From NCBI GenBank assembly GCA_964353675.1, contig CAYGXH010000001.1, positions 1-41,850 of the forward strand: DNA of 41,850 nt. Reading direction: 5' to 3'. Source of the DNA: an uncultured Chlorobiaceae bacterium. GTDB lineage: Bacteria > Bacteroidota > Ignavibacteria > UBA10030 > SZUA-254. Below, in pieces: positions 12,001-41,850 of the stretch (position 1 is its first letter; every line of letters starts with the position of its first letter). A program made the translations under genes and the position numbers. The notes under the pieces are model-generated. The model was not told the origin of the DNA. It saw only the letters and a program-made list of their open reading frames with translations, and did not search any database.

Positions 12001-12006
12001 ATTAAC

Positions 12007-13467: not shown

Positions 13468-13488
13468 CCTTTTAAAAGAGCATACAAG

Positions 13489-14322
13489 TTACACACCGCT
13501 GTAAGCAGAAAATCCGCCGTCCACCGGTAAAATAATGCCTGTCACAAAAGACGACAGCGGTGACAGCAGCCAGAGTGTTGCACCAAACAGATCGGCCGGG
13601 TCGCCGAATTTACCCATGGGTGTGTGATCAAGAATTTTTTTACCACGCTCCGTCAGTTGTCCGGTGTCCTTATCGGTCAGTAGAAATCTGTTCTGTGCCG
13701 TAAGGAAAAATCCGGGAGCAATAGCATTCACGCGAATATTGGGTGAATACTCCTGCGCCATATGGACAGCCAGCCACTGTGTGAAGTTACTGACGCCTGC
13801 CTTTGCAGCCGAGTACGCTGCAATTCGTGTGAGCGGCCTGAATGAATTCATGGAGGAAATATTTACGATAGTTCCTTTCTTGCGCTCTGCCATGTGCCGC
13901 CCGACGATCTGCGAGGGAATGATAGTTCCCATAATATTCAGATCGAAAACAAATTTCATTGCTTCCGGAGGGAGATCAAAGAATGACGCAGTCGGATTAG
14001 TGGTTGCTTTCGGATTATTACCTCCCGCTCCGTTGATGAGCGCATCGATCTTCCCGAATTCTTTAAGAACCTCATCCATTGCTCTCTTCATCATTTCAGG
14101 CTGCAAGACATCACCGTTGACGACGATAGCTCTGCCAACTTTCGAATCGAACCTTTTCACAACCTGCTCTGCCATGGCAGGGTCGCGATCTATGATTGCC
14201 ACGTTTGCATTACAACCGGCGAGCAGACAGGCCATCTCGCCGCAGAGTACACCGCCACCCCCTGTGATAATGACCGTATAATCCGTGAAATCGTATGCTT
14301 TACTCACATCCGCGAGATTCAT
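13489..14322 (-). CDS. uxuB: SDR-type fructuronate reductase / D-mannonate oxidoreductase-like
   Basis: VIITGGGGVLCGEMA, INGAGGNNPKATT, NISSMNSFRPLTRIAAYSAAKAG, VNAIAPGFFLTAQNRFLL and PVDGGFSAYSG match the classical-SDR mannonate-reductase subgroup seen in Bacteroidota uxu loci (recalled, not searched). Confidence 0.65.
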   Translation of the reverse strand: MNLADVSKAYDFTDYTVIITGGGGVLCGEMACLLAGCNANVAIIDRDPAMAEQVVKRFDSKVGRAIVVNGDVLQPEMMKRAMDEVLKEFGKIDALINGAGGNNPKATTNPTASFFDLPPEAMKFVFDLNIMGTIIPSQIVGRHMAERKKGTIVNISSMNSFRPLTRIAAYSAAKAGVSNFTQWLAVHMAQEYSPNIRVNAIAPGFFLTAQNRFLLTDKDTGQLTERGKKILDHTPMGKFGDPADLFGATLWLLSPLSSFVTGIILPVDGGFSAYSGV

Positions 14323-14355
14323 AATATGATCCTTCTTTCGATAAAGTGATGTTTG

Positions 14356-26208: not shown

Positions 26209-29031
26209 TTATTTCATAAGAACGATCTTTGCTGTGGCACTGAATTCATCCGTAATCATACGGATCAGATATATTCCGCTTCCCACCAGTTCGAGTTCGT
26301 CAGTTAAGCCATTCCATACTAACGAATAAATTCCGGCTTGCCGTTCTTCGTTCAGCAATGTGGACACTTTCTGCCCAAGCAGATTATAAACCGCTACCAG
26401 CACATGCTTGTTTGCAGGAAGGGAAATATCGAACTTCGTCGACGGATTGAACGGATTCGGGTAATTCTGGCTAAGAGAAAATTCCAGCGGTTGTCCGTTT
26501 ACTGTTCGGGATTCAATCTCACCCGTCGGCGGAGGCGGCGGAAGTTCCGTACCAGCCACGATATTGATCACATTCTTCGGATTAGCTGATCCAGACAACT
26601 TCATAATGATTTGTCCCGCCTCGGTCGCCTTCACCCAGTAACCTTTACCAGGCCTGATCGAGTCAGCAGCAACATACGCGCCTTCATAACTGAAGAATTG
26701 ACTCGTCACTAATCCCGGCGGTTCACTTGTGATCGCAGTGACCGCAATGGGTTCACTTATTGAACCTATCATGTTCCATCCCTCAATGACATCGATGGTG
26801 TCTGATTCAAGACTAACACCGGGTATCATGACGGTGTCAGAAGCTGCAAACTTTAGCCAGTAGCCGATACCGGATTTCAGCGTATCCTCTACTATATACT
26901 GATTATCGTAAGCAAAGGCATCCGATGTGGCGAGCGGGAAGAGCGTTGTCTTCCGGGCATCGACTACCATGCAAGGAAGTGATATCATGTTCCAGTTCAG
27001 ATTTACCATAACAGGAAGCGTCGCAGCATCAAGCGGATGAGCAAGATCCGACGCGCACCAACGTGACAATGAATTCAGACCGGTTACAGTCAGCGTATGC
27101 TGTCCGGCATTATTTGCTGCAGGCTGATTGCCCCATGTCAGACCTCCATCCTCCGACTTCCATAACAGCATAGTGGCAGCATCCAATCCGTTGAGTTCGC
27201 TTGCGTCATACCGGTAGATTAAAGTGGCATTCAATCCGGTATTTGTCGTCGGTCTAATATCAAAATACCGTTTTACACTCATCACTCCCTGCACAGCATG
27301 ATCCCGCGTGAGAATTGTACTGCCGAGATCAGCTGCGGAGCCGATCTGCACTCCCAGACCGGCGATGTTTACAGCACTGCTGGGAGAAGTAAGCGTTCGG
27401 GTGGTTGTTATCACTCCGCTTGTACCTGTGACAGTGTTACCTGAAGTTTCACTTAAAAGTCCCGCCGGTCCGAGCGTGATAGTATAGCCATTTAAATCGA
27501 GATCGCCGCTTATGACGGCAAGTGTGCCATCTATTGTAAACGCAGAGACCGAATCAACAAAAACACCCGCCGCATTATTAATTGTAAGATTATTTGCAGA
27601 AGCCGGGAATCCGCTGCCAAGCCGTTGTAGGGTTGTGCCATTGTATTCGAAGTTTGCTGCTGTTGCATAATTCCTGTCTCCGCTCACGCGAACAGCGCCG
27701 GAACTGCCCATACCTGTCGCGCGGATGCCATTTTCAGAAGCAGTTATCAGGGCAGCGCCGTCTTCGATTGTAAAACTACTTGGTATGAGGTTCGCATTGG
27801 TCCCGCCGCCGATATAGCCGTCCGGTCCGGCGATTACAGTCGCGTTATGTTTGATACGCTGCGTAGCGCCCGAACCTATGAACGGACTGTTGCCTATATT
27901 CACGGTCGTTACTGTAACACTGTCGCCAAACTGCATGTTGCACGCTCCTGACCATGCAACCGCAGAGTCGAGGGTTACTGTCTGTGTTCCTGCCTTATTG
28001 AAAACAAACTTACCGTTCGACGTCGCACCTGTATTAGGATCTGTTGAGTTCTGGTTAGTAGTCTTCGGTCCGTAGTATACATCACCCTGAATGTACCATG
28101 TTGCTGTTCCGGCAGCTGATTGCGAGCCCCTTGAAATAGAAACCTGGGACGCGCTATCCCGGACCTCTATATTACCCAAAACAGTCACAATAATATCAGT
28201 ATACGCTTTGCTTGTTCCGTTGGAGGATAAGATCGATTTGTTTAATACTGTGATATCACCATTGACAAATACTCGGGTAACATTACGCTGTGTATCCACA
28301 CCGGCATTCGGACCGCAGAAATATACTCTGCTCAAGCCCGTGCTCAGGACTGTGAGATCACCACGAATATAAGACGTAGTATCGACCGTTCCCGTCGGCG
28401 GATGCATTCCCATGTTGGCGTTTACCACCTGCCCGGGACAGTTCCAGATGATGTTATAGTAACTGCCGGGTCGACCTCCAGCTGAAGTAGCGGAATCTAA
28501 TCCCGTTACCAGAAGTGTGGAACCATCATCCCATACTGCATGAGGCGTTGTTCCGCCATTTTTACCATTTTGTTCCTGGTGGAATATTCCCCCGTTTCCA
28601 ATCACCAGATCGCCCGTACTTGTAGTTGTTATTGCATACCACCCGGACACTGTAGAAACTTTTCCTTTCTGTACCATCGTTCCATACACGTTCATCGTCC
28701 CGTTAGCAATGCACAAGGTAACGGTGGTATCTCCGACTATCCCTACAGCAAGCGTACCGCCTGCCTGAATGACAGAAGCGCCAACATATGTTTTACCTGT
28801 ATCTATCAGCGCGACACTATCACCGCTGAGGATTGTTGTCATATGCAGTGTATCGGGAAGAGCCGGTGCTGGCGACACCCAAACGGCACCGTCAAACTGT
28901 TCCCAAGTATTGGTATCGTACCATGAACCCGATTGATGCGTTCGGAAATCACCGGTACTCTGACTGACAGATCTGCTCGACAGCATCACCATCAGCAATC
29001 CTACAACAAAGAAAATTGCCAGCTTTTTCAT
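26209..29031 (-). CDS. 940-aa secreted protein of unknown function (beta-helix-like Gly/Thr/Asn-rich repeats), T9SS cargo
   Basis: Signal peptide MKKLAIFFVVGLLMVMLSSRSVSQ. N-terminal GDFRTHQSGSWYDTNTWEQFDGAVWV motif. No catalytic motif recognised. The C-terminus carries the GWNM module, a PPPPP linker and the NYPNPFNPST sorting domain. Confidence 0.8.
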   Translation of the reverse strand: MKKLAIFFVVGLLMVMLSSRSVSQSTGDFRTHQSGSWYDTNTWEQFDGAVWVSPAPALPDTLHMTTILSGDSVALIDTGKTYVGASVIQAGGTLAVGIVGDTTVTLCIANGTMNVYGTMVQKGKVSTVSGWYAITTTSTGDLVIGNGGIFHQEQNGKNGGTTPHAVWDDGSTLLVTGLDSATSAGGRPGSYYNIIWNCPGQVVNANMGMHPPTGTVDTTSYIRGDLTVLSTGLSRVYFCGPNAGVDTQRNVTRVFVNGDITVLNKSILSSNGTSKAYTDIIVTVLGNIEVRDSASQVSISRGSQSAAGTATWYIQGDVYYGPKTTNQNSTDPNTGATSNGKFVFNKAGTQTVTLDSAVAWSGACNMQFGDSVTVTTVNIGNSPFIGSGATQRIKHNATVIAGPDGYIGGGTNANLIPSSFTIEDGAALITASENGIRATGMGSSGAVRVSGDRNYATAANFEYNGTTLQRLGSGFPASANNLTINNAAGVFVDSVSAFTIDGTLAVISGDLDLNGYTITLGPAGLLSETSGNTVTGTSGVITTTRTLTSPSSAVNIAGLGVQIGSAADLGSTILTRDHAVQGVMSVKRYFDIRPTTNTGLNATLIYRYDASELNGLDAATMLLWKSEDGGLTWGNQPAANNAGQHTLTVTGLNSLSRWCASDLAHPLDAATLPVMVNLNWNMISLPCMVVDARKTTLFPLATSDAFAYDNQYIVEDTLKSGIGYWLKFAASDTVMIPGVSLESDTIDVIEGWNMIGSISEPIAVTAITSEPPGLVTSQFFSYEGAYVAADSIRPGKGYWVKATEAGQIIMKLSGSANPKNVINIVAGTELPPPPPTGEIESRTVNGQPLEFSLSQNYPNPFNPSTKFDISLPANKHVLVAVYNLLGQKVSTLLNEERQAGIYSLVWNGLTDELELVGSGIYLIRMITDEFSATAKIVLMK
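26212..26466 (-). other. T9SS C-terminal sorting domain (type A)
   Basis: NYPNPFNPSTKFDISLPANKHVLVAVYNLLGQKV...GIYLIRMITDEFSATAKIVLMK. Confidence 0.85.
26437..26994 (-). repeat. GWNM...GYW(L/V)K two-fold module + poly-Pro linker, copy B
   Basis: 186 codons colinear with 21665..22222 (see that entry). Confidence 0.85.
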
Positions 29032-29113: not shown

Positions 29114-30190
29114 TTATGGATTTTTTATAGCTTTATTTACATCCGGCACGTTAGCCGTTTGTGCACGTTTACAGGAACAGGTCTCACGAATCACCACCTG
29201 TGTCGGAAGAATGACATGATGTTCCCGTATCGCTTCATGATCCTGTATGCTTTCCAGTAGAACCTGAACTGCCCGTGCTCCTAATTCCCTTGCCGGTTGT
29301 CGGACCACGCTGATGGCAGGAGAGAGAAAACGCCCGACATCGCTGTCACCAAAGCAGATTATATCAATATCATCCGGAATTTTTATCCCGAGTTCTTTTG
29401 CAGCTTCATAAACACCAAGTGCAACAGGATAGGTGGCTGTAAGGATGAATTCCGGCAGTATCCCTTTATTATAGAGTTGTTTGAAACCTGCGTACCCATC
29501 ATCTTTCCCGTGCCCTCCTGTTACTATCCATTCGCGATTGAGGGGAATTCGGTACTCTTTCAGAGCATCCTGAAAACCCTGTAATCGGTTCTTTCCTATG
29601 TTGATGTTTGTATTTCCACCCAGAAATCCGAGTTTACGATAACCGATTTTAATGGCGTGTTCCACCGCTTCATAGGCACCTTCGTGGTCGTCTGTAAGAA
29701 CAGTACTGAAACCTGCGAGAGGCGGATCGGGAGCACGGTCCATGAATACGAGTGGGATTCCCATTTTTCTGATCCATCGGAAGCGTTCCATGTCCTGTGT
29801 TTCCTGCGAAATAGAAATGATAATTCCATCAACTCTCATGGCAACCAGAGTCTGCAGGTGTTTCAATTCGCGGACAGTGCTTTCCTGTGAGACGGTTAGA
29901 ATTGTCTCATACTGGTTTTCAAATGCCGTATCATAGGCACCTTCGATGACGGCTCCGAAAAATGCATGAGCTATCTTCGGCACAACCAGACCGATCATGT
30001 TTGTTCGCCTCGTTGAAAGGTTCCTCGCCATGATGTTTGGAGAGTATCCAAGCTCGGCTGCGACTTTCCTTACGCGTTTTGTCATTTCAATAGAAATATC
30101 CGGATGCCCCCGCAAGGCTTTTGAGACCGTCACGCGTGATACTTTCAAGGGTCTGGCGATATCATCAAGTGTTATGTGTCTCTTTTTCAC
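29114..30190 (-). CDS. LacI-family transcriptional regulator
   Basis: N-terminal HTH ITLDDIARPLKVSRVTVSKALRGHPDISIEMTKRVRKVAAELGYSPN, followed by a periplasmic-binding-protein-like sugar-binding core. GTG start at 30190. Confidence 0.9.
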   Translation of the reverse strand: MKKRHITLDDIARPLKVSRVTVSKALRGHPDISIEMTKRVRKVAAELGYSPNIMARNLSTRRTNMIGLVVPKIAHAFFGAVIEGAYDTAFENQYETILTVSQESTVRELKHLQTLVAMRVDGIIISISQETQDMERFRWIRKMGIPLVFMDRAPDPPLAGFSTVLTDDHEGAYEAVEHAIKIGYRKLGFLGGNTNINIGKNRLQGFQDALKEYRIPLNREWIVTGGHGKDDGYAGFKQLYNKGILPEFILTATYPVALGVYEAAKELGIKIPDDIDIICFGDSDVGRFLSPAISVVRQPARELGARAVQVLLESIQDHEAIREHHVILPTQVVIRETCSCKRAQTANVPDVNKAIKNP

Positions 30191-30244: not shown

Positions 30245-31531
30245 TCATTGCCGTACTCGTGACTTCTTCCCCTTTTCGAGTTCAATTGCCGCGAGGAGTA
30301 ATGGCCCTATTCCTTTCATGTCATTCGTACGTTTCGGTTCGCTGAGGTAATAATCATAGCTGCCGTCTCTATAGGGATTACCGCCGAGGCCTGCACTGCG
30401 GCACGTCCCGTAAAGATCTATCAATCCATCTTCTGTAGTGCTTACATGGTATTTCACCACACCCTCGAATGTTTCTTCGGAGATTCTGAAAAATTCCTCA
30501 CCCAGATATCCGCGATTTACTCCTCTTGCAAATGCATATGCAAACATACACGATGCAGAAGTCTCGAGGTAATTACCCGCCCGTTTCCCCTCGTTCACCA
30601 CTTGAAACCACAGATTCGTCTCCGGATCTCGGTACTTTAAAAGAGAGGCGGCAAGATCCTTCAGTAATTTACCGAGGATGTCACGCTGTCGGTGCTCCGG
30701 CGGAAAATCATCCAGCACATCGACCAGAGCCATCATGTACCACCCCATGGCTCTACCCCAGAACGACGGTGATGCACCGGTCACCGGATTCGACCAACTC
30801 TGCTTTTTGCTTTCGTCCCACCCATGATAAAATAATCCGGTTGCACTGTCTTTCGTATGACTTGCAATCCATATAAACTGGTTGGCAATATCATCAAATG
30901 CGGCGGTATCGTGTGTCATGACGGCATATTGAGTATAGAAAGGTTCTGCCATATACAAACCATCGAGCCACATCTGGTAGGGATATATCTTTTTATGCCA
31001 GAATCCGCCTTCATTGGTACGGGGTTGTTCCCTTAATTGTCGGTGAAGCGTATCTGCTGCAGCGAGGTACCTTGTTTGACCTGTTTTCGTATAGACCTCG
31101 AGAAGAGCTCGCCCAGGTCCTATATTGTCGAGATTGTAGTCGGCCAATGGATAAGTCCGTATCCCTCCATTGTCATCGACATACTGATTCAGGTTTTTCC
31201 TGATAAACTCGAAATATTTTTCATCCCCCGAATGAATCCACATACGATGCAGTGCAACGAGCATCAAGCCCTGTTCATAATTCCACTTTTGATTCGGTGA
31301 ACCGGAATCAAACGTCACACTGCCCGGATGCCGCAGGAGGAACGTCTCCGCGATCCGCTGAGACCACGTCGCATCCTTGAGAATTTTAAACTCTGCCTGC
31401 TGCCCGGAGCATCCGGAGAAAAACAGAACTGTGGCGATATATAGATAAACGATTTTCATCTCTTGAGATTGATTACTGCCGCTTCGACCGAACGCTACTG
31501 AGAAGCAGATGAGTGCAGTTACATTGCGCAC
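30245..31531 (-). CDS. Unsaturated rhamnogalacturonyl hydrolase (GH105, YteR/YesR-like)
   Basis: KWNYEQGLMLVAL, GGFWHKKIYPYQMWLDGLYMAEPFY, GLFYHGWDES and FWGRAMGWYMMALVD are hallmark GH105 blocks. The likely true start is ATG 31459, giving lipoprotein signal MKIVYLYIATVLFFSGC. The track start is GTG 31531. Confidence 0.9.
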   Translation of the reverse strand: MRNVTALICFSVAFGRSGSNQSQEMKIVYLYIATVLFFSGCSGQQAEFKILKDATWSQRIAETFLLRHPGSVTFDSGSPNQKWNYEQGLMLVALHRMWIHSGDEKYFEFIRKNLNQYVDDNGGIRTYPLADYNLDNIGPGRALLEVYTKTGQTRYLAAADTLHRQLREQPRTNEGGFWHKKIYPYQMWLDGLYMAEPFYTQYAVMTHDTAAFDDIANQFIWIASHTKDSATGLFYHGWDESKKQSWSNPVTGASPSFWGRAMGWYMMALVDVLDDFPPEHRQRDILGKLLKDLAASLLKYRDPETNLWFQVVNEGKRAGNYLETSASCMFAYAFARGVNRGYLGEEFFRISEETFEGVVKYHVSTTEDGLIDLYGTCRSAGLGGNPYRDGSYDYYLSEPKRTNDMKGIGPLLLAAIELEKGKKSRVRQ

Positions 31532-31587: not shown

Positions 31588-33180
31588 TTACTTTACGAGC
31601 ATCATGCTTTTTATATCGACGTTGCGATCGGTCTGAATGCTGTAAAAGTACACTCCGGAACAGAGATTTGACGGAGCAAACTGTAAGTGGTGTATACCGG
31701 CATTCATATGCCCTTTTACTAAGGTCGTGATTTCCTGGCCGAGGACATCAAAAATCCTGACGATAACGAATGATTCAACCGGTAATCCGAACCGTATTTC
31801 AGTTGACGGGTTGAACGGATTAGGATAATTCTGGTCCACAAAAAATGTTTGAGGAATTGTCGTTTCGTCTGGTAAATTTACGGAAACGGGAACTAACAAG
31901 CTTCCTCCTTCATATAAAATCGATCCGCTGGGTCCAAGGATAAACGGTATCGTATTATCACATACACCGGCGACTAACCTGAGCATGCCGTTTATAGTTG
32001 TCGTTTGCGTCAGGGTTACGCCTGCTGAGTTGTTGATCATAAGATTGTTTACCGTTGTCGGCATCAGTGTACCGGTTACCTGTGCTGTTGTGCCATTAAA
32101 GATATAATTGGCGTCCGGACTCAGTACATTACCGCCGCCCGCACTGCCTCCAGTACATTGGATACTCCCGTTAATACCGGCAGGATGTCCGGTCGCAAGT
32201 GTTGCGCCGGGCAGTAAAATAAAGCTTCCCGTATTAGAACTGCTTATCTCGGTCGTACCCATATTCAGCCTAACTCCGCTGTCAACCTGTATAGTGAAAG
32301 GACTCGAGCCGGTACCGTAGGTAACATTCGTTAACGTTATAAACTGTACGGTGCCGACGTTTGCGAATATAAATTTTTGTGTTCGTGCAGAGCCGCCAGA
32401 ATTTTGCAGAGTGGCATTGGCTACATCGAAATCACCATAATGTCTCCATAAAACATCGGTACCGCTTCCCCTGCTCACGCTGAAGTTTCCGCCAGTTACG
32501 GAAATATCACCAAGCGTATTTACCTCTATCGATGCACTCGAACCCGAACCGTTTGATGCGAAGGCCCCGCCTGTAACAGAAATATTATTTATCGTTATGG
32601 GGCTGGAATACCCGGCAGGACTCGTCAGATAAACGCGTCCGTTTGGGACGGCATCGCCTGTACTATTGACGGTGAAATTACCGCGGATTGTGTTTCCGCT
32701 CATGGATAGATCAACATTCGCTGTCTGAGTTCTGCACGTCCAAATAAAATTGTAAAAATTCTGGTTGGCATTATTGGGTTTACTACCGGTCACGTAACCG
32801 GTCACATGACATGTCGATCCGTCAGCCCATGTACATACCGGGAGTGAACCGTTATTTTGATCATGCTGATAAATCCCGCCATCTGCAATGGTCAGACTTA
32901 CCGTTCCGCCAAGTTTACCCTGGTTCTTCAGAGTATCTGTGATTGAAACTGCAACATCGATGTAGACTGAGTCCGCACTCTGGATAGTGATGACTTCGGA
33001 TCCGGTTGGTGCACTCGAAGCTGGTACCCAAGTTGATCCGTTAAATGTCTGCCAAGTTGATGTCGCACTCCAAACACCCGTGGTTATCGATTTGAAATCT
33101 CCGTTCGCCTGTGCCATTACCGCAACGGATGAAAACAGTATGACAACAAGAATCGCGCAAAGAAGGTTAAAAGGTTTCAT
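31588..33180 (-). CDS. 530-aa secreted protein of unknown function, paralogous to the N-terminal part of the 940-aa protein; T9SS cargo
   Basis: Signal peptide MKPFNLLCAILVVILFSSVAVMAQA. GDFKSITTGVWSATSTWQTFNGSTWV, GGIYQHDQNNGSLPVCTWADGSTCHVTG and NFYNFIWTC align with the 26209..29031 product. The sorting domain is NYPNPFNPST. Confidence 0.8.
   Translation of the reverse strand: MKPFNLLCAILVVILFSSVAVMAQANGDFKSITTGVWSATSTWQTFNGSTWVPASSAPTGSEVITIQSADSVYIDVAVSITDTLKNQGKLGGTVSLTIADGGIYQHDQNNGSLPVCTWADGSTCHVTGYVTGSKPNNANQNFYNFIWTCRTQTANVDLSMSGNTIRGNFTVNSTGDAVPNGRVYLTSPAGYSSPITINNISVTGGAFASNGSGSSASIEVNTLGDISVTGGNFSVSRGSGTDVLWRHYGDFDVANATLQNSGGSARTQKFIFANVGTVQFITLTNVTYGTGSSPFTIQVDSGVRLNMGTTEISSSNTGSFILLPGATLATGHPAGINGSIQCTGGSAGGGNVLSPDANYIFNGTTAQVTGTLMPTTVNNLMINNSAGVTLTQTTTINGMLRLVAGVCDNTIPFILGPSGSILYEGGSLLVPVSVNLPDETTIPQTFFVDQNYPNPFNPSTEIRFGLPVESFVIVRIFDVLGQEITTLVKGHMNAGIHHLQFAPSNLCSGVYFYSIQTDRNVDIKSMMLVK
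31591..31830 (-). other. T9SS C-terminal sorting domain (type A)
   Basis: NYPNPFNPSTEIRFGLPVESFVIVRIFDVLGQEI...GVYFYSIQTDRNVDIKSMMLVK. Confidence 0.85.
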
Positions 33181-33292
33181 ATTGTATCTCCTTTTATAAA
33201 TTGTTGATTAGTGTCTGATACCGACGAAAATGTTTGAGAATAAAATTTCGCCTTAATTTTAATTATGTCTTTTTTTTCCAATTATATTTTCT

Positions 33293-34780
33293 CTATAAGA
33301 ACTTAGGCAGGAAATAGACCAAATCTGCCACAATGCAATGCCTTCGTTCAGAATTATGGTTAACATTCGTCTGCCATACATCCTGATACTTCATGGAGAA
33401 GTACTCGTACGTCAAATTCAACTGCATATTTGAAAACGATATCCCGCATCCCGCGGAGTATACTGAATAGGTGACCGGTTCACCTGCTATAGGATTTCCT
33501 TCCGGTTCAAATACTTCTGCCTGACCCCGCAAGCCTGAACGCAGAGCAAGCCACGCGAGCGGACGGTACTCTACTCCCAGATGAAGCACAGAAGCTGAGA
33601 GCCAGGGATTTGACCTAATGCCATCCGATGTAGTGTACACTGCTGAAGTGTACGGACGTATTTCATATTCCAGGCCGACTACGAGTTTCTGAATCGGAAA
33701 TATTGTAAGCCCGAACGTCCCGCGCCACGGAAGTTTGATCTTATCCTCTCCTCTGATTGTACTAAGCGAAGGGGTGCCTGAAGTATCGAACTGTATCTCC
33801 GTTGTGTACTTGCGCGTGATTGTCGTTGGTGGTTTTAGCGAAAATCCTACGTTAATATGTGCTCCGCGGTAAATTCCGCTGAATGTGCATTCGTATCCGC
33901 TGTAATCCGAGGTCCCTGATTCGACAATCCGTTGGTAAACAGAATCAAGCCGGAAGTAGTTATAAAAAAATACAAGCTTACCGCGACCGAGGAAATCCTG
34001 GACGTCATCCGTGCGTCCGTCGAGTATCATACCGCTCATGCCCAGAGATATTTTATCTGAGATCGATCCCGATAGAGCCGCCCCGTAACCCCGGACAGAT
34101 CCCTCGCGGCTTCTGAAGTACTTATACCATTGGACCGGTACGGTTGAATCCGGATTATTAGGAGGTAACGGTATAGGGATGGGTCGTTCTGAACCGATAT
34201 GGGGTGCCAATATATTATTATTCTGGTAGTATTGATTCAAATCCGCATATTCTATGGTACCAACACCGAATGTCAATCTTGTTTCGCCAAAAGAAAACGG
34301 TATTGCGAGGAACGCCTGGAGAGGAACACCTCTGTTTTTCGAACGATTCCAATTCGGACCTATATTATCGAAAGGCCTCTGTACAGTATCACCGGGATTC
34401 AAACCGGGATGGAGCGAGTCCGGATCACTTATGTATCCGGTCAATCCTTCCATGAGGAGACTTAAATTGGAGTAGTATTTTAAAGGGGTATAGTGCTGAA
34501 CCTGTTCAGATTTGGAAAATTGTCCTAGCCCTCCGAGCGATATTTGTATTCCATTGAGCGACTGAAGAGACGCAGGATTCGAGAACATTATTCCGGCATC
34601 ATTCACGATAGTTATGGTTGTTCCTCCCATCGCCCTTGATGCAGCGGAGGAAAGTACGTTATGGTCTATACCCTGTATGGTGAGAGGATCGCTTAATCCC
34701 TGTGAGAATACCTGTTGAATAATCAGAAGACAGGCAATCATGTATTTTAAGCGCATGAGTGTATTATAATAGTGCATCAT
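33293..34780 (-). CDS. Putative outer-membrane beta-barrel protein, distantly PorV/FadL-like
   Basis: Signal peptide from ATG 34756 (MRLKYMIACLLIIQQVFSQ). It has a degenerate copy of the PorV-type N-terminal motif (SSAASRAMGGTTITIVNDAGIMFSNPASL) and alternating beta-strand composition rich in Y/G/S. ATGA overlap with the upstream gene. Confidence 0.45.
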   Translation of the reverse strand: MMHYYNTLMRLKYMIACLLIIQQVFSQGLSDPLTIQGIDHNVLSSAASRAMGGTTITIVNDAGIMFSNPASLQSLNGIQISLGGLGQFSKSEQVQHYTPLKYYSNLSLLMEGLTGYISDPDSLHPGLNPGDTVQRPFDNIGPNWNRSKNRGVPLQAFLAIPFSFGETRLTFGVGTIEYADLNQYYQNNNILAPHIGSERPIPIPLPPNNPDSTVPVQWYKYFRSREGSVRGYGAALSGSISDKISLGMSGMILDGRTDDVQDFLGRGKLVFFYNYFRLDSVYQRIVESGTSDYSGYECTFSGIYRGAHINVGFSLKPPTTITRKYTTEIQFDTSGTPSLSTIRGEDKIKLPWRGTFGLTIFPIQKLVVGLEYEIRPYTSAVYTTSDGIRSNPWLSASVLHLGVEYRPLAWLALRSGLRGQAEVFEPEGNPIAGEPVTYSVYSAGCGISFSNMQLNLTYEYFSMKYQDVWQTNVNHNSERRHCIVADLVYFLPKFL

Positions 34781-35808
34781 TTTAGTATTGCTCCTAAGCT
34801 GATACGCTGTACATTCCCCAAATAGGTACCGATTGACCCATAACTATAGTCCAGCAACAGATCGACAGTTCCGACTGATTGTCTGATCCCGGCGCCGAGA
34901 GTGAGTCCTTCGTAATCGTAATTAAACTTATAACCGCACCGCAGTGAGAATGAGTGCATAAACTCATATTCGACTCCGAGGTGTGCCTGCTGGGTATAGT
35001 CGTTCGGCTGGAAAAGGTCAAAAGCTACGCCTAAACGGTTTTTCTCCTGATTATAAAGCAGGGCATCCGCTCCGATGACATTCGCCGCGATGCCGAACCT
35101 GAAGAGGAGCGGGACCGGATTTGACTCCTTAGCATATTTCACATTTGCGCCGAAGTTTTGTACCGAGGCAGCAATCTGAATTGACCGATATCCGGTATGG
35201 TATCTGACACCAAAATCAAACAGAATTCCATCCGCCCATGTATGGACGTTCTGATAGTTATCCTGACTGACCATAGCCAGTGCAGTCTGGCCGCCGAACA
35301 ACGATTCGTGTACATACTTGAGGCTGATGCCGGTTGAGAACTTATCGGTCAGACTTCGTGCATACGAAAGTCCAATGAGATAACTGAATGGATGAAATGT
35401 CCTGCCCGTCATACCGGGTGCATCCGGATCCTTGATGTACGGGGCCGCAACACTCGTTTCCTCAAATTCTCCGAAATCAACATATTGTATTTGAAGTCCT
35501 ACTGCGCCGAATCCGCTGAGCGGAAGAGCGTAACCCAGCGCTCCTTGCTGAGTATCGAAAATCCAGTTGATATATGTAGACGTCAGTTCATGGTTCTCGA
35601 TGATCGCGAGTCCGCCGGGATTCCAGAAGAGAGCTTCGGCACCTGATGCCCAGGCGGAGTATGCATCGCCTAATGCCGCACCTCGAGCGCAAGGCATCAC
35701 ATGCAGGAACTGCATTGAAGTGCTTCCCACCTTCTGGGCAACCACACCCGATGAAAAAGCACACATCGCAGCGAGTGTCAAAACAATTTTATACATGTTA
35801 TTCATCAC
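34777..35808 (-). CDS. PorV/PorQ-family outer-membrane beta-barrel protein
   Basis: Signal peptide MYKIVLTLAAMCAFSSGVVAQ. GSTSMQFLHVMPCARGAALGDAYSAWASGAEALFWNPGGLA matches the conserved N-terminal block of PorV/PorQ (UPF0164-like) barrels. About 340 aa with a beta-strand periodicity. Confidence 0.6.
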   Translation of the reverse strand: MMNNMYKIVLTLAAMCAFSSGVVAQKVGSTSMQFLHVMPCARGAALGDAYSAWASGAEALFWNPGGLAIIENHELTSTYINWIFDTQQGALGYALPLSGFGAVGLQIQYVDFGEFEETSVAAPYIKDPDAPGMTGRTFHPFSYLIGLSYARSLTDKFSTGISLKYVHESLFGGQTALAMVSQDNYQNVHTWADGILFDFGVRYHTGYRSIQIAASVQNFGANVKYAKESNPVPLLFRFGIAANVIGADALLYNQEKNRLGVAFDLFQPNDYTQQAHLGVEYEFMHSFSLRCGYKFNYDYEGLTLGAGIRQSVGTVDLLLDYSYGSIGTYLGNVQRISLGAILK

Positions 35809-35823
35809 CTCTTTGCCCTTCGT

Positions 35824-38061
35824 TCAATGTATAATGACAAACTTGCCATGCGTCCTGGCACCGCTTTGATCCTCAACGACAAAGAAATACACTCCGGAGG
35901 CGAGGATCTGATTATTCCTCGAAACTTGATACCATGGATTGTTAATAGCATCTACATCATGTTTGATGGTCTGTATGAGCTGACCGCTGTAGGAAAATAT
36001 TCTTATGGTGCAATGTTCGGTCAGTCCGTAGAATTGTAATCTGTCCGTTACCTCACCGTTTGGATCACTACCGGTCAGGCTATTGGTTACAACCAGCGGA
36101 TTAGGGACCACGTACACCTTCCCCAGTGTTGCTACGGCCGGCGCCTGTGTTTCATGGGGAGTTATATTTGTCATTCCGCTTTTTCCTCCCAGTGAATCCA
36201 CAGAAACAACTGCATAGTAGCAATAATCACCGATGTTGCTTGAAGTATCAAGCAGAACATAGACAGAATCGAAAAAGTAACGTGGATCCCTCCTTGCCAC
36301 GCTGTCCATAAGTGTCCAGGGTCCGAGCGGATGTGTTGCCCGCAATGCCCGATAATATTGGAATAGCCCATGGAGTCTTGGAGCATTGAATTCCTCAACC
36401 TGCGGTCCCCACGTAATCTTGTTTACGGCTGCACGAGTGTTTTCGACCGTGATAACGGGCGCGGGGCATGGTATGCTGGTGGTGTTATATGCTCCTAATG
36501 GTTTTAATGGATCTAATACGTCAGGTCGGGAATTACGGGGTTCGTACTGCATAGTATCATATTTTATAAGATCCCTTCCGGTGAACATTTCAATCGCCCG
36601 GTCTGCCACATCACGAATTGATACTACTTTTGGATCAACATACCATGGCAACGGATGCGTTTGGAGGTAATTGCTTCCTATCACCGCCGGTGTCCCGACG
36701 TATGGGTATGTCAGCTCCTGATACCAGCTTGGGATAGGATGAAGATATGGCTCGGGTTCTCCACGGAGACCTCCTCCAAGGTCCATATAGATACTATCGC
36801 TTGCCACACCGGGTCCGTAACCCACAACTTCGGCAACGACGAAGCACATCTTTTCCTGGGGTGGAAGTGTGTACGGCCCGAAACCATACCCACGGCATGC
36901 GGGCTGACTCCATCCGAGAGTCTGAGACGGTTTCGCGCGCCCGAACCAATAGTAATGATCACCGAAAAAGTAGAGGGAATCATTCTGTGATTTAAAAACA
37001 CTGCTCTTCCGGCTTAGTGGATCGAGCCAGGTTTGCAGTTTTGTTGGATAGAGGTTGCCGTTCTCATACCGATTAAGATAGGGTTGCTTGATTTTATTGT
37101 TTTCATCCCATACGAAATTTGTATCGGACGGACTCACATAAATGCCGGTTTTTCCTTTAACTGCAAGATGGTCATAATCGTAATACAGCATAATGAGTCC
37201 GGCTGCCTGAGGAGAATTGAGACCGCCTCTATCACTGGGTCTTGACCATACATCAAAGAATACCGAGTCGGGTTTTCCGATCCGGTCGTGATTATAGGAC
37301 ATGTATCGTTTGAAGTCGTACCTCGCGAACTGATCTGCCTGGCGCGTATCGGCTTCCGCCCACCTGTTGTACTTTCGCTCATACCCGAACATCGACGTAC
37401 AGAATCCATATCCCCACGCGACAAAAGCATCAGCAATAGTGTCTGATGTGCTGTTCTCCAATTCATATTCGTATATGATATGGCTGTCGTATCCCGGATA
37501 ACTCCAGGCACGACTCGTCCGCGTGACTACAATGCCGAGCGGTGTACCCCATTTCGCTTTGATTTTCTCTTCCGCTTCATCCGGATCAAAATCCGGATTC
37601 AGGGCGCCATCGGACAGCACTGGATAATTTTCGATCCGATCTATGGATATCGGATTGCTGTAGACATTTTCTACCTGAGTCGCGTTTCCGTTATTATCCG
37701 ATACGGCGCCGCAATACACGTACTGCCTGATGCCTGCCTTTGTGCCGCCGATATACAAACCCCCTCCGAAAGAATTATGCTGTCCCGCATATTCCTTTCT
37801 GTCAATGATTAGGTACGAATTGGGGGGCCATTCCATCGAAGGATATCCTACCAGCATACCGGCCGTTCCGTTATCATACGTTCTTCCCAGTTCGCCTGTA
37901 TTATAGACAGTCTGGTGAAGCATACCACGTGTATGAATTTTGAACTCGCGGAGTTGCGCGGATACGACCGAAATATAAAGCGCAGAGAGAAGTACTACCC
38001 ATGCGATATGTTTGATTTTTATCTTATGCATATCATTAAATCCCTTAGAATTCGACCACAA
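35824..38061 (-). CDS. 745-aa secreted protein of unknown function with a divergent sorting-domain-like C-terminal beta-sandwich
   Basis: Probable start ATG 38031 (MHKIKIKHIAWVVLLSALYISVVSAQ), with AAGGGA upstream. No lipobox Cys and no recognised catalytic or SusD-like motifs. The tail is VYVVPNPLVV...CTIRIFSYSGQLI...GVYFFVVEDQSGARTHGKFVIIH. Confidence 0.75.
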   Translation of the reverse strand: MWSNSKGFNDMHKIKIKHIAWVVLLSALYISVVSAQLREFKIHTRGMLHQTVYNTGELGRTYDNGTAGMLVGYPSMEWPPNSYLIIDRKEYAGQHNSFGGGLYIGGTKAGIRQYVYCGAVSDNNGNATQVENVYSNPISIDRIENYPVLSDGALNPDFDPDEAEEKIKAKWGTPLGIVVTRTSRAWSYPGYDSHIIYEYELENSTSDTIADAFVAWGYGFCTSMFGYERKYNRWAEADTRQADQFARYDFKRYMSYNHDRIGKPDSVFFDVWSRPSDRGGLNSPQAAGLIMLYYDYDHLAVKGKTGIYVSPSDTNFVWDENNKIKQPYLNRYENGNLYPTKLQTWLDPLSRKSSVFKSQNDSLYFFGDHYYWFGRAKPSQTLGWSQPACRGYGFGPYTLPPQEKMCFVVAEVVGYGPGVASDSIYMDLGGGLRGEPEPYLHPIPSWYQELTYPYVGTPAVIGSNYLQTHPLPWYVDPKVVSIRDVADRAIEMFTGRDLIKYDTMQYEPRNSRPDVLDPLKPLGAYNTTSIPCPAPVITVENTRAAVNKITWGPQVEEFNAPRLHGLFQYYRALRATHPLGPWTLMDSVARRDPRYFFDSVYVLLDTSSNIGDYCYYAVVSVDSLGGKSGMTNITPHETQAPAVATLGKVYVVPNPLVVTNSLTGSDPNGEVTDRLQFYGLTEHCTIRIFSYSGQLIQTIKHDVDAINNPWYQVSRNNQILASGVYFFVVEDQSGARTHGKFVIIH

Positions 38062-41044
38062 AACCTAGATTGAACGAGCGTGGAGCGTTATCGTAAATCA
38101 AAAACGACTGATCAACCGCGAACGCCTGGGACGGAATATTTGTATCCTGCCAATACAGTATTCCATTCTGCGGATTATCGATTGCATAATCCTCGTAAAA
38201 CTTGATCCGGTTATTCGTCGATCCCGCATCCGGCGTTGAGAAGATGTAATCATAATTGAGGATTTTATTGTCGAAAAGGTTGAACACCTCAAGGTAAACA
38301 AAAGCGCTCGTGCCGAAGAAGTTTGGAATCTTCTTGATAATTTTCGCATTCGTGGTGTATTCGGCGGGCGTCCGGGCGCCGTTTATGAGCTTCGTATTTC
38401 TTGATGAGGTATAAGGACGACCGCTCTTGAAAAATGAACTGATAGATATAGTCATATTTGTGAATGGTTCCATCTCTCCTTCATTTCCTGATTCAAAAGC
38501 GAGATTAAGTATTAAGTTATGCGTACGATCGAAGTTGAGCAATATATCTCTGACAGGCACTTTATCCAGTTTAGTGATTACTTCCCCGGTGAGCGGATCT
38601 TTGATGAAGGTCGGGGGAGCATTTGAAGTTGTCGCGCTCTTGCCTGTCGCGACGCTGAACTGATAGTTTGCCGATCCGGTAAATGGACCACGTTTTTTTG
38701 TAAGGGCGATCCGGAATCCGCGTATGTCGGCGTAATCCCTGTTGAAGTAAGTTTCATAGGATTGATCGGAAGTAAAGATCGCCATTTCAACCAGATTCTT
38801 GACATCCTTATAATATCCGCTTATATCGAGAGTGAATCCTTCACCCAACCCCTGCATGACACCTATGTCGTAGCTGTTTGTTGTTTCAGGTTTCAGCGTA
38901 GGGTTGCCGAGGCGTATCGGTCTTAATACCGCCTGCTGCACGCGCGATGAAATAATGTATTGAAAAGAAGGTCTTTGCATAAACGCGCCGTAGTTAAGGT
39001 GGAAAACGGTAGATGTGGAAACAGGAAACGATACGCCAACACGCGGTTGGAGGCGGCCGAGTATTGGAGCCTTTTCCCGCGAGGCAGCATCCGGGTCATT
39101 CGAAGGATTTCCGAGAGAATCAACTATACGGTAAGGATTAAACAGATCGGTGTAGTAATCGCTTTGCGAGCTCCAGATATCCATTCTTAAGCCGACATTC
39201 GCTATCATTCCCTTGAATTCCATTTTATCCTGCGCGTAGAAAGCAGCTTCAAACGGATTAGCCTCGTAAAGTTCGACCGCCCCGCCCGCGCCATCGCGGA
39301 CGCTAAGGTAATTAGAGACATCGATGCCATAGGAATTGAACTGAAAACCGCCGTTAAGCAGATGCGATTTCGTTACCTGGCTTGTTATGGATGCATCGGC
39401 GGATATCGTGCGCGTCAGCTCGTCCCTGAAAACATCATCGCCTCTGAGGTAATAAAATTCGTCAGGGGAGCGGACGGTCTGCGGTATGATTTTATCCCAG
39501 TCGATCTGGTAATTCAGATCGTTAACGATTAAGGAATCTGCGACAGAGGACGGTGATGGGGTTGATCCCACTTTCCTCTTCGTCCACAGAGAATTCAGTT
39601 TGATTTCATAAAAGGTACTTGGACTCAGCGTATGGGAAAAACGCGCGCCGAGCTGGAGGTTGGTTCTCTTCTGATAATTTATAGCCGTAATTCTGTCCCA
39701 GAGCCAATTGTAGTATCCAAGACTGCTCGAACTTGGGAACACACTGCTGTTGTCCTCCGTGAATCCTCCGCTGATCCGCAGCGATGCACCCCTTCCGATA
39801 TCAGTGGCAATATTACTCATAACCTGATACTGTATATCTGGCAATTCAGTGGGAAATACCGGCCAGACGATATTCCGCCTCAGCGCGAGGAACATCCGTA
39901 TGTTTTCATCTATTGGTCCGCCCGTCGAAGCTTCAATGGAATAATCGACATCTTTTCCGTAATCACGGTACAGATCCCTCCGCATCTGCATCCGCCAGAG
40001 AGTTCGTGCTACCTGAAGCTGAACGAGCGTATCTCCGCCATAACGATCCTTCAGTCCGGAACCCATCGATGTGTAGTAGGGCGTGTTCGTTTGCGGATCT
40101 CCAAGCAGCCAGGTATTCGTTTCAAGCAACAATTTAAGATATGGATTCGAGTGCGGGACATAGACGCTGTCGCCTATCATGTAGGGGTTCTTGCCCGGAT
40201 CATAAACACTGGACCCGAAGTGTTTGCGTCCCGGTGCACGCATACGGGTCTCGACTTTCGTTCTCCATCTATCGGACTTTCCTTCTTTCATCGAGATGTT
40301 CACAACTCCCGATTGCGCGTTACCGTACTGAGCACCGAAGCCACTCGTTATGACCTCAACTTCCTCTACCGCGCTCATTATAGGCATGAATGCGGTTGCG
40401 TTGTTGAGGGGATTGACTATGCCCATGCCCTGCAAAGTATAAAATTCTTCGCCGGTGCGTCCTCCTCTGAAATGGCCGTCGGTAATGTCGGCAGCAAGCT
40501 GGAGAACGTCACCCACATCCCTTACGCCGGCGACGGATGTGATCTCCTCGGGACGGATTATCGCACTGGTAGAAGTTTTTTCAGGCTCGACATCCGGACG
40601 GATTGCTTGAATAATCACTTCCTGCTGAATCAATGCTTCTGAGGACAAACGAAACTCTATTGGGGTTGTTCGTCCGCTATTGATAATGACATCACGCTGC
40701 ACTGTTCGCTGATACCCAATTATTGAAGCTTGAATGTCATATTTACCTGGAGGAATATTCAAAATAAAAAACGTTCCCTCCAGATCGGTTGAAGCTCCAA
40801 TCGTCGTACCGATTATTGTAATATTGCACCCGACCAGCGGTTCGCCCGACTCAGCATCTTTCACCACGCCAGACAATTTTCCAACATTCTGAGCAGGGAG
40901 CGAAACGACAGTGATAAGGATAAGTATGGCAAGGAGGAAAAGATTCCGCGCACTCTGCCTGCCTGGGGAGCGCTTTACAGCATTCCCACAGGATGCATAC
41001 AACCTACGGATGCAGGGCACTGGTAAAAATGTATCAAAATACAT
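38045..41044 (-). CDS. TonB-dependent outer-membrane receptor with N-terminal carboxypeptidase-regulatory-like domain (non-SusC type)
   Basis: GKLSGVVKDAESGEPLVGCNITIIGTTIGASTDLEGTFFILNIPPGKYDIQASIIGY (CarboxypepD_reg-like). Plug region FRGGRTGEEFYTLQGMGIVNP. A long beta-barrel ends with the C-terminal aromatic motif ...FNLGFVVEF. Confidence 0.85.
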   Translation of the reverse strand: MYFDTFLPVPCIRRLYASCGNAVKRSPGRQSARNLFLLAILILITVVSLPAQNVGKLSGVVKDAESGEPLVGCNITIIGTTIGASTDLEGTFFILNIPPGKYDIQASIIGYQRTVQRDVIINSGRTTPIEFRLSSEALIQQEVIIQAIRPDVEPEKTSTSAIIRPEEITSVAGVRDVGDVLQLAADITDGHFRGGRTGEEFYTLQGMGIVNPLNNATAFMPIMSAVEEVEVITSGFGAQYGNAQSGVVNISMKEGKSDRWRTKVETRMRAPGRKHFGSSVYDPGKNPYMIGDSVYVPHSNPYLKLLLETNTWLLGDPQTNTPYYTSMGSGLKDRYGGDTLVQLQVARTLWRMQMRRDLYRDYGKDVDYSIEASTGGPIDENIRMFLALRRNIVWPVFPTELPDIQYQVMSNIATDIGRGASLRISGGFTEDNSSVFPSSSSLGYYNWLWDRITAINYQKRTNLQLGARFSHTLSPSTFYEIKLNSLWTKRKVGSTPSPSSVADSLIVNDLNYQIDWDKIIPQTVRSPDEFYYLRGDDVFRDELTRTISADASITSQVTKSHLLNGGFQFNSYGIDVSNYLSVRDGAGGAVELYEANPFEAAFYAQDKMEFKGMIANVGLRMDIWSSQSDYYTDLFNPYRIVDSLGNPSNDPDAASREKAPILGRLQPRVGVSFPVSTSTVFHLNYGAFMQRPSFQYIISSRVQQAVLRPIRLGNPTLKPETTNSYDIGVMQGLGEGFTLDISGYYKDVKNLVEMAIFTSDQSYETYFNRDYADIRGFRIALTKKRGPFTGSANYQFSVATGKSATTSNAPPTFIKDPLTGEVITKLDKVPVRDILLNFDRTHNLILNLAFESGNEGEMEPFTNMTISISSFFKSGRPYTSSRNTKLINGARTPAEYTTNAKIIKKIPNFFGTSAFVYLEVFNLFDNKILNYDYIFSTPDAGSTNNRIKFYEDYAIDNPQNGILYWQDTNIPSQAFAVDQSFLIYDNAPRSFNLGFVVEF

Positions 41045-41102: not shown

Positions 41103-41850
41103 CTACTTCAGGTATAACATCTTTCTTGTTTCCATTCCTCTGTCGGTCAATAGCCGTGAAACGTACAGACCCGAACTCAGATTTGCTGCATTAAAAGTAA
41201 CCCGGTGAATTCCCGCATCGACAATGTCGTTCATGAGCGTTGTAATATATGCTCCGGCGATAGAATATACTTCCAACTTCACCATGCTCCGATACGGTAC
41301 TTCAAACTCGATTTCCGTGACAGGATTAAACGGATTTGGGTAATTGGATCGTATACGGTAGTTTACAATCTCTGTCACATTAATTTCATCAACATGGGTC
41401 GGATATTGTGGAACGAGACTGTTCAAATAATGCTCCAGGTTGGAATATCCGTCTGGATTGATAAAAGCTCCATCTGATGTATCAGCCGGATTTAAACTGT
41501 GTAAAATTTCCCAATCATCCGGTATTCCATCGTGGTCAGTATCCGCAGGCGGTTCTGCCGAATTTAATACGTGCCACCCTCCGACGTCATTCTGGGAGTC
41601 GATGATACCCGAATTCGCGCCAGTTAGACCTCCATACAGCGCCGTATCATTCTTAACTTCCCACACAATTCGCAGATCGACAGAGTCGCGCTTCGGCAGT
41701 GATGCGCCGCCGTGTTCGAGGACGGAGATGTATGCTTCTTCAGGTGACTGCTGAGTGATAGGTGCGAATTGAAACGGCTCATTGACACGGATGGTATCCT
41801 TGACAGCTTGTGTTGGTCCCTGCACGCCGTACGTCCAGTTATCAGCGGTC
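41103..41850 (-). CDS. C-terminal part of a secreted pectate-lyase-like protein (5' end outside window), T9SS cargo
   Basis: The frame stays open to the window edge (…TADNWTYGVQGPTQAV…). The GTG at 41825 in the track is internal. RDSVDLRIVWEVKN, IIDSQNDVGGW and the calcium-binding-like DTDHDGIPDDWE...NPADTSD...GYSNLEHYLNSL tail are typical of Bacteroidota PL1 lyase C-termini. The NYPNPFNPVT sorting domain follows. Confidence 0.6.
   Translation of the reverse strand, partial: TADNWTYGVQGPTQAVKDTIRVNEPFQFAPITQQSPEEAYISVLEHGGASLPKRDSVDLRIVWEVKNDTALYGGLTGANSGIIDSQNDVGGWHVLNSAEPPADTDHDGIPDDWEILHSLNPADTSDGAFINPDGYSNLEHYLNSLVPQYPTHVDEINVTEIVNYRIRSNYPNPFNPVTEIEFEVPYRSMVKLEVYSIAGAYITTLMNDIVDAGIHRVTFNAANLSSGLYVSRLLTDRGMETRKMLYLK
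41106..41345 (-). other. T9SS C-terminal sorting domain (type A)
   Basis: NYPNPFNPVTEIEFEVPYRSMVKLEVYSIAGAYI...GLYVSRLLTDRGMETRKMLYLK. Confidence 0.85.

Follow-up and report, generated by a model that had tools for sequence, protein, structure and literature searches.

Candidate SusD-less glycan-capture module built from a TonB-dependent receptor and type IX secretion parts in an Ignavibacteria pectin locus

Results

We analyzed a 41.85-kb stretch of DNA (∼47% G+C; hereafter the window) from an uncultured Chlorobiaceae bacterium of the Ignavibacteria (contig CAYGXH010000001.1, positions 1 to 41,850), in which all long open reading frames (ORFs) accepted as genes lie on the minus strand. The window is a pectin (homogalacturonan) utilization locus, and within it we found a five-gene block that probably does the glycan-capture job of a SusC/SusD pair without a SusD lipoprotein. 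In the direction of transcription, the block encodes a TonB-dependent receptor, a secreted protein that we call X735, two outer-membrane barrels (PorVL343 and B495) and a type IX secretion system (T9SS) cargo protein, C530. With a rough probability of 55%, we favor the reading that X735 replaces SusD as a partner or lid: the T9SS would export it, and its cognate barrel would hold it beside the receptor. An earlier note, made from the letters of this DNA alone, had suggested that the position normally held by SusD is filled by a non-lipoprotein. In line with this, no Pfam match to SusD/RagB was found in the 25 long ORFs (≥240 amino acids (aa)) that were scanned and that tile the window, and X735 has no lipobox cysteine.

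Five genes in close succession

The receptor (999 aa; 38045..41044, minus strand) begins with a CarboxypepD_reg domain, which is followed by the plug and the barrel. As anticipated in the earlier note, the N-terminal domain was readily recognized (CarbopepD_reg_2, PF13715; 63.7 bits at residues 57–145, i.e. nucleotides (nt) 40610..40876), while the remainder gave a weak Plug match and many partial matches to TonB-receptor models of NCBIfam. The SusC/RagA model TIGR04056, which has a cut-off of 368.25 bits, was matched with no more than 53.5 bits and over residues 56–170 only. Judged by these scores, the receptor is SusC-like in its size and N-terminal extension, yet lies outside the SusC/RagA family. 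Its orthologues are 941–1032 aa long and carry Plug, TonB_dep_Rec_b-barrel and OMP_b-brl_3 domains. A 336-aa ORF on the opposite strand (39632..40642, plus strand), antisense within the receptor gene, is most likely spurious.

The X735 gene comes next (35824..38031, minus strand). Its ORF had been listed with 745 aa from a TTG codon; an ATG at position 38031, exactly 13 nt past the TAA of the receptor, gives a protein of 735 aa. We divided this protein into a signal peptide (residues 1–25; 37957..38031), a novel N-terminal domain (residues ∼26–520; 36472..37956), an FN3-like domain (residues ∼521–635; 36127..36471) and a probable T9SS sorting domain of a divergent type A (residues 636–735; 35827..36126), all encoded on the minus strand. 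The leader is of the signal-peptidase-I type (VSA↓Q). The gene of PorVL343, a 343-aa outer-membrane barrel (34777..35808, minus strand), starts 15 nt past the X735 stop codon, and that of the 495-aa barrel B495 (33293..34780, minus strand) overlaps the PorVL343 stop codon in an ATGA. The C530 gene (530 aa; 31588..33180, minus strand) follows 112 nt past B495. The arrangement that the earlier note had read from the DNA, namely four consecutive genes with these two gaps and this overlap, thus held in every detail, including the ATG of the secreted protein.

In all five block proteins (31588..41044), the residue after the predicted signal-peptide cleavage site is Gln (LPA↓QN, VSA↓QL, VVA↓QK, VFS↓QG and VMA↓QA). 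This agrees with the 'Q-rule' of Bacteroidetes, which is described as not valid across the Fibrobacteres–Chlorobi–Bacteroidetes (FCB) group as a whole (PMC5837995).

Conservation of the pectin-type block

To survey the block in other genomes, we used one genome per species, which gave 237 genomes with an X735 relative, and analyzed the best 80 loci by ORF calling and phmmer searches with the window proteins. Gene positions were counted by order, and for each gene only in loci whose contig left room for it. The receptor gene was directly upstream of X735 in 68 of 71 loci and PorVL343 directly downstream in 67 of 70; B495 came after PorVL343 in 63 of 66 loci, and C530 after B495 in 54 of 62. Median gaps along the block were 15, 11 and −4 nt. 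The earlier note had let its proposal hang on co-occurrence of the genes across FCB genomes; the same order and strand recurred in nearly all 80 loci, which rules out chance adjacency.

X735 itself has 739 homologues at E ≤ 0.001, the best 120 of which are 56–81% identical. The records of the block carriers are labelled Ignavibacteria/Ignavibacteriales, 'Bacteroidota bacterium', KSB1, Calditrichia and Rhodothermales. A cultured carrier, Roseithermus sacchariphilus, is represented by a complete genome (locus L052) and has been reported to use, or grow on, pectin (PMC7409140). Pectinase genes were found beside the block in 45 of the 54 loci of at least 15 kb, and GH88, LacI, GH28 and PL9 genes recur beside it in other genomes. 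A diverged subgroup (∼45% identity) keeps the order receptor–X–PorVL–B495, with an MFS gene in place of C530. Some genomes hold more than one X735-type copy.

Seven of the loci (L008, L037, L040, L047, L053, L068 and L080) come from records labelled Chitinophagales, Chitinophagaceae, Cytophagia or even Synechococcus. Such odd labels of metagenome-assembled genomes may stem from errors in binning or taxonomy; if they hold true, the block is also present in orders that are classical users of SusCD.

We also noticed a second receptor in a KSB1 locus (L002, 185..5213). This CarboxypepD_reg TonB receptor (993 aa) is encoded near the pectin block and is followed by a gene for a 563-aa T9SS cargo protein, with no PorV-family barrel; phmmer found the same type of gene pair in loci L028 and L033. 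The pair may be another SusD-less arrangement of a receptor with a T9SS partner.

A receptor–X–barrel triad in other loci

An exhaustive profile-free search yielded ∼25 full-length clusters of X735 at 50% identity, and beyond these many proteins of 600–800 aa that have its N-terminal and C-terminal parts. We looked up the genomic context of seven distant relatives (23–37% identity). Six of them stood in the order receptor–X–small barrel in non-pectin loci, and the seventh was on an uninformative 4-kb contig. These distant triads comprise a CarboxypepD_reg receptor of 950–1032 aa (complete genes), X and then a protein of 314–333 aa; two of the small proteins scored 176 and 180 bits on NF033709, the model of the PorV/PorQ family. 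Enzymes encoded nearby included GH38 with DUF4185/DUF5005 and an ABC importer, GHL10, and GFO/IDH-type oxidoreductases. A second large orthologue group, with X proteins of ∼605–613 aa, showed the same context in a 3-Mb contig; its best 120 matches were mostly 52–69% identical and mostly from Ignavibacteriales. B495 was absent from the non-pectin triads examined.

In an alignment of the superfamily (A3), the proteins share a beta-rich N-terminal domain (HxRG…NxG…WP…GGG…AEE…AWSYP.YDDFII.EY..NTG), a 'FGPYTL.PGDS' motif, a PPPAP linker, the FN3 domain and the tail. Their middle part varies and has many indels. No Pfam domain was found in ten distant X members. Taken together, gene order and homology make the receptor, X and the PorV-family barrel a conserved, substrate-independent core, to which the pectin version adds two genes.

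The N-terminal domain of X735 and its receptor

For the pectin-type family we computed a conservation profile from 46 complete blocks as mean pairwise column identity. X735, PorVL343 and the receptor reached 0.58–0.60, compared with 0.47 for the GH88 of the same loci. In a mirror-tree comparison, the X735 N-terminal domain and the receptor gave the highest correlation within the block (r = 0.94; partial r = 0.83 when controlling for B495). Because the two genes are adjacent, their trees correlate this closely and their conservation exceeds that of GH88, we infer a receptor–X partnership.

The structure prediction was less informative. Neither a Pfam domain nor a match to a PDB sequence was found for X735, and relaxed Pfam scans of its N-terminal domain, of the C530 body and of a 940-aa cargo protein of the window returned noise only. 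The AlphaFold2 (AF2) model of X735 had a predicted local distance difference test (pLDDT) score of 65, and a fold search with it matched only the C-terminal tandem FN3/Ig part. Residues 21–89 (37765..37968) are strongly conserved (RDxRVHxRGMLHQTVYNTGELGR…PSMEWPPNS…GQHNSFGGG), and nonetheless had a pLDDT below 50. This segment could serve as an interface and fold only once it meets a partner.

An unlikely alternative, although the one we take most seriously, is that X735 is a surface-anchored enzyme of a new CAZyme (carbohydrate-active enzyme) family, which would make the last extracellular cut in pectin, while the receptor imports the products and the barrel anchors or escorts the enzyme. The high conservation and the many invariant Arg, His, Asp, Glu, Trp and Tyr residues in the pectin-type family would fit such a role, as would substrate-specific subfamilies with variable middle regions and the frequent occurrence of T9SS-anchored enzymes in this locus. 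However, no catalytic-family match was found for X735 in Pfam, NCBIfam or the PDB, and the residues that are invariant across the superfamily look structural: nearly all are Gly, Pro, Trp, Tyr or Asn, with a single near-invariant acidic residue (E154). The 13-nt gap and the correlation with the receptor also suit a receptor partner better than an enzyme.

The tail of X735 as a putatively retained domain

The earlier note had seen in the tail of the secreted protein a resemblance to a sorting domain. In our scans, the X735 tail barely reached the cut-off of TIGR04183 (23.4 versus 23 bits) and had no match to PF18962. It could be aligned with five unambiguous type A sorting domains encoded in the window, with which it shares Y..PNP, SGVYF and the hydrophobic-basic end. 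Compared with those five, the X735 tail has an 11-residue insert and a final His. A search of the PDB with the X735 family profile gave the PorZ tail as its sole match (5m11_A, E = 0.006), and the NCBIfam matches of the tail were to PorZ and PorU, limited to the C-terminal 100 residues; neither the PorZ beta-propeller nor the PorU peptidase region was found in X735 in the NCBIfam and PDB profile searches. According to a review of the T9SS, the two proteins that keep their C-terminal domains are PorZ and PorU, with these domains bound to PorQ and PorV, respectively, and cognate PorV-like barrels are speculated there to shield such tails from cleavage (PMC10202324).

Across the 46 blocks, the tail is the best-conserved segment of X735 (0.68 versus 0.60 for the body), and there is no dip at the junction of the FN3 domain and the tail. 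Residues that are invariant across the superfamily (∼25% identity) cluster in the tail (PNP, G713 and Y715, with C674, I676 and H691 near-invariant). Pairwise distances between X735 tails track the rest of the block (r = 0.76–0.89). The tails of ordinary cargo proteins gave a different picture: distances between C530 tails track nothing (r = 0.10–0.26; r = 0.20 against the protein's own body), conservation of C530 dips to 0.36 just ahead of its tail, and the tail of the PL9 cargo protein of the locus is less conserved than its catalytic body (0.35 versus 0.50). By these measures, the X735 tail behaves like an integral domain rather than a tag, and such sequence proxies argue for its retention over cleavage by PorU.

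These patterns also bear on the possibility that all sorting-domain enzymes of the locus depend on the PorV-family barrel as a dedicated shuttle and on B495 as a tether, with X735 being just one more cargo. At least six further sorting-domain proteins are encoded in the window, and PorV is the known shuttle for T9SS cargo (PMC10202324). We nevertheless regard this explanation as having little chance of being right, since the barrel always adjoins X, even in triads that have only one or two T9SS cargo genes nearby, since the tails of ordinary cargo evolve as generic tags, and since the fold of B495 (see below) is not PorV-like. This wider idea goes back to the earlier note, which had the barrels tether the many sorting-domain enzymes encoded nearby, and it found no support: the barrel travels with X regardless of the cargo, and the cargo tails are unlike the X735 tail.

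Two different barrels and C530

PorVL343 matched NF033709 with 213 bits (cut-off 90), which bears out the PorV/PorQ-like character that the earlier note had ascribed to it. It remained below the equivalog cut-offs of this family (PorV/PorQ models NF033710/NF033711), with 93.6 bits versus 220 for PorQ, 82.2 versus 250 for PorV and 27.5 versus 325 for PorV2. In the PDB it matched PorV itself (6h3i_F, E = 2.9e-8), and there was a weak match to Toluene_X (18.9 bits). On these scores, we classify PorVL343 as a clear member of the PorV/PorQ family that is neither a PorV nor a PorQ equivalog.

B495 matched the same family model at residues 44–83 only (28.6 bits), and its sequence had no match in the PDB. 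The AF2 model (pLDDT 80) has strands of 22–28 residues with long extracellular extensions. The top folds in the PDB were BamG (9hiv_F, E = 2.3e-16, template modelling (TM) score 0.70; 9n2d_B; 9hjm_F), followed by FadL, TodX and TbuX (E = 1e-13 to 1e-14), whereas PorV came at rank 28 with a TM score of 0.45. This ranking rules out B495 as a second PorV-like barrel. On the BamG equivalog model NF053685, B495 scored 48.8 bits (cut-off 250), and several of its 466 homologues match Toluene_X (PF03349). The earlier note was therefore right about the overlap and the PorV-type N-terminal motif of B495; its reading of the whole barrel as PorV-like gives way to a FadL/BamG-like fold, and, as modelled, only one of the two barrels in the block is of the PorV type. 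Since PorV, too, is a FadL-type barrel, PorVL343 and B495 are distant cousins.

BamG, though a barrel of the FadL family, is no channel: its extracellular strands are extended into a pillar on which a surface protein docks (PMC12611786). Because BamG, the closest fold, acts as a docking pillar, the analogy suggests that B495 is a scaffold rather than a channel.

The earlier note had also conceded that the barrels might turn out to be of generic FadL or porin families. B495 has a FadL/BamG-like fold; PorVL343 belongs with PorV/PorQ. It seems improbable that both small barrels are ordinary FadL-type channels or porins for the diffusion of products, with no role in the T9SS, and that the X735 tail is a plain cleaved signal. 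Both PorV and BamG are members of the FadL superfamily, and the Toluene_X matches of PorVL343 and of some B495 relatives would agree with such channels. Against this, PorVL343 scores well on the PorV/PorQ model, FadL channels carry hydrophobic molecules and not uronates (PMC12611786), the gene junctions are tight (15 nt and ATGA) with synteny of ∼96%, and the supposedly plain signal is the most conserved part of X735. That the X–barrel pair is a general T9SS attachment component, paralogous to PorZ/PorQ or PorU/PorV and only incidentally in a carbohydrate locus, is very improbable despite the PorZ/PorU-like tail and the family of the barrel, as X735 matches PorZ and PorU in the tail alone and has no beta-propeller or peptidase region, divergent X subfamilies each occur with a receptor in loci for different substrates, some genomes have more than one X735-type copy, and the barrel falls under both equivalog cut-offs.

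C530 is a T9SS cargo protein, as expected from the earlier note. Its body is rich in Gly, Thr and Asn and repetitive, and an ordinary type A sorting domain (residues 452–524; nt 31609..31827) forms its tail (PF18962, Por_Secre_tail, 30.8 bits; TIGR04183, 31.2 bits). Pfam, NCBIfam and relaxed Pfam scans found no domain besides the tail, and C530 had no sequence match in the PDB.

The surrounding pectin locus

Along the direction of transcription, the gene order is a truncated T9SS cargo gene, the five-gene block, GH88 with LacI and a 940-aa cargo protein, the pectinases, uptake and hexuronate catabolism, and finally a GDSL esterase, GH43 and DUF4861. The locus combines, on one strand, substrate-coherent CAZymes (GH88, GH28, PL1, PL9 and CE8) and a regulator of the LacI family. 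The small T9SS cargo gene in front of the block ('up240'; 41103..41825, minus strand) is cut by the edge of the window and recurs near the block in many genomes. Downstream of the block, Pfam scans identified GH88 (30245..31531), the LacI regulator (29114..30190), a 1549-aa T9SS cargo protein with PL1 and CBM6 (21419..26068), GH28 (19658..21385), a pectinesterase of family CE8 (18172..19683) and a PL9 T9SS cargo protein (15677..18181); the 940-aa T9SS cargo protein (26209..29031) has no recognizable domain besides its tail. The last part of the window (622..15675) holds genes for an MFS transporter, an SDR enzyme, a 6PGD-like enzyme, a 2-hydroxyacid dehydrogenase, a LarN-like protein, two PfkB kinases, UxaC, UxaE, the GDSL esterase, GH43 and DUF4861. 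All of these genes are on the minus strand.

Within this last part, the hexuronate genes (4238..13467) form an unusual set: UxaE (tagaturonate epimerase) is encoded together with UxaC, the two PfkB kinases, the LarN-like protein, a PdxB-like 2-hydroxyacid dehydrogenase (DUF3410) and an enzyme of the 6-phosphogluconate dehydrogenase family. They may represent a non-standard route of galacturonate breakdown. A scan for promoters and terminators gave counts no higher than the shuffled expectation and left the limits of the operons undefined; it relied on the sigma-70 consensus, which is probably unsuitable for this phylum.

Discussion

How might the block work in a bacterium of the Bacteroidota/FCB group that stands outside the classical users of SusCD? 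We propose that the T9SS-secreted PL1, PL9, CE8 and GH28 enzymes would cut pectin outside the cell, that the TonB-dependent receptor would import the resulting oligogalacturonides, and that GH88 and the UxaC/UxaE pathway would finish their breakdown. X735 would take the place of SusD. After crossing the outer membrane via the T9SS, its sorting domain would escape cleavage and stay on the co-encoded PorVL343, much as PorZ stays on PorQ and PorU on PorV, so that the N-terminal domain would come to lie at or next to the receptor and serve there as a lid or as a partner that binds substrate. In the pectin-type block, B495, as a BamG-like scaffold with an extracellular pillar, and C530, as a further surface component, would extend this complex.

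More tentatively, and with a likelihood that we put a little short of even, the window may exemplify a general class of glycan importers in the FCB lineages outside the Bacteroidia (Ignavibacteria, KSB1, Calditrichota and Rhodothermales). Such an importer, a 'T9SS-assembled utilisome', would consist of a TonB-dependent transporter and an X partner, from a new protein superfamily, that is delivered by the T9SS and held permanently, via its uncleaved sorting domain, by a PorQ-like barrel of its own. Substrate-specific subfamilies would serve pectin, mannoside-type glycans and others, with the BamG-like scaffold added in the pectin type.

Several observations weigh against the proposal that X735 is a SusD substitute held by its barrel. 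The surface location of X735, the retention of its tail, all physical contacts and the binding of a ligand are our deductions from sequence. The model of the N-terminal domain is mediocre, with the low-confidence stretch at residues 21–89, and neither a binding site nor a fold relative could be read from it. The sorting-domain score of X735 is right at the threshold, PF18962 is silent on the protein, and the match to the PorZ tail is weak. Shared descent, or transfer of the block as a whole, confounds mirror-tree correlations. The partial correlation of the X735 tail with PorVL343 drops to 0.14 when controlling for the receptor, and thus gives no signal of pair-specific co-evolution. Finally, three orphan X735 paralogues (L064, 9968..12190; L082, 9989..12157; L077, 3328..5490; 45–51% identity) have no adjacent receptor, and those in L064 and L082 have no barrel either. 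All three are second copies, with a copy beside a full block elsewhere in the genome, and the contig of L077 ends at the orphan gene. As for their surroundings, the L082 orphan has an MFS/Atg22-like gene and BatD as its neighbours, and the L064 orphan a small T9SS cargo gene.

In Bacteroidota, the uptake of glycans has its accepted hallmark in SusC/SusD pairs, on which tools for the prediction of polysaccharide utilization loci rely. Ignavibacteria and their relatives are abundant degraders of polymers in soils, sediments and bioreactors and are largely without SusD; indeed, susCD genes were 'scarcely detected' in the CAZyme clusters of Ignavibacteriales (PMC10576277). If our proposal is true, the triad of receptor, X and barrel would be a searchable marker for the polysaccharide loci of these bacteria and would define a protein superfamily that lacks a Pfam model. 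It would also widen the role of PorV/PorQ-type barrels from the secretion machinery to the permanent anchoring of nutrient-uptake partners, and reveal a second evolutionary route to the surface display of receptor partners, by a sorting domain and a barrel instead of a lipid anchor. In agreement with the earlier note, which knew of no described system of this composition, a full-text literature search found no published description of the triad; most subscription journals were outside its coverage, and prior art is possible.

Comparison with known systems

Rhodothermus marinus, a genetically tractable species, offers a possible counterpart of the triad. Its xylan locus Rmar_1070–1073 lists a TonB receptor, a hypothetical protein with a por-secretion tail, another hypothetical protein and a further hypothetical protein with a por-secretion tail, in a LacI-regulated CAZyme cluster (PMC6987092). 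Unlike in our analysis, the proteins were listed there as hypothetical and left uninterpreted, and the apparent likeness is one of gene pattern as annotated.

Among the described systems in which a T9SS protein goes with a barrel, the PorZ–PorQ and PorU–PorV pairs of Porphyromonas gingivalis resemble X735 and PorVL343 in combining a protein that has a type A-like C-terminal domain with a 14-strand PorV/PorQ-family barrel, and among tails, those of PorZ and PorU come nearest to that of X735. In contrast to these proteins, X735 has neither the beta-propellers of PorZ nor the peptidase of PorU, and its barrel is neither equivalog; moreover, the X–barrel pair shares an operon with a TonB receptor and occurs in divergent versions in loci for different substrates. 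The SprB/SprF system of Flavobacterium johnsoniae, in which a type B C-terminal domain goes with a PorP/SprF barrel, likewise has a cargo-specific barrel gene beside a T9SS cargo gene. However, the X735 tail is type A-like (CHU_C, 16.8 bits versus a cut-off of 27; no match to TIGR04131), no PorP/SprF match was found in the block proteins, and the block is tied to nutrient import, not to gliding adhesins. BamG, the part of the BAM complex that docks the surface lipoprotein BamH, shares with B495 the predicted fold and the long strands that project past the membrane, whereas B495 stays far below the BamG equivalog cut-off, is ∼100 residues longer and is encoded in a pectin locus rather than with BAM genes.

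The closest parallel in function is the SusC/SusD (RagA/RagB) utilisome. Here, too, the gene of a large CarboxypepD_reg TonB receptor is followed by that of a secreted, probably surface-exposed partner, the pair sits in a substrate-specific CAZyme locus with a regulator, and the partner family diversifies by substrate. The block differs in that its receptor fails the SusC/RagA model, in that X735 has no signal of the TPR-like SusD/RagB fold and replaces the lipid anchor by a T9SS sorting domain, in the two small barrels added to its operon, and in its regulation by LacI rather than by a hybrid two-component system (HTCS) or a sigma factor of the extracytoplasmic function (ECF) type. On this comparison, the module would be an import system of a TonB receptor and a surface partner that is built with T9SS parts instead of lipoproteins.

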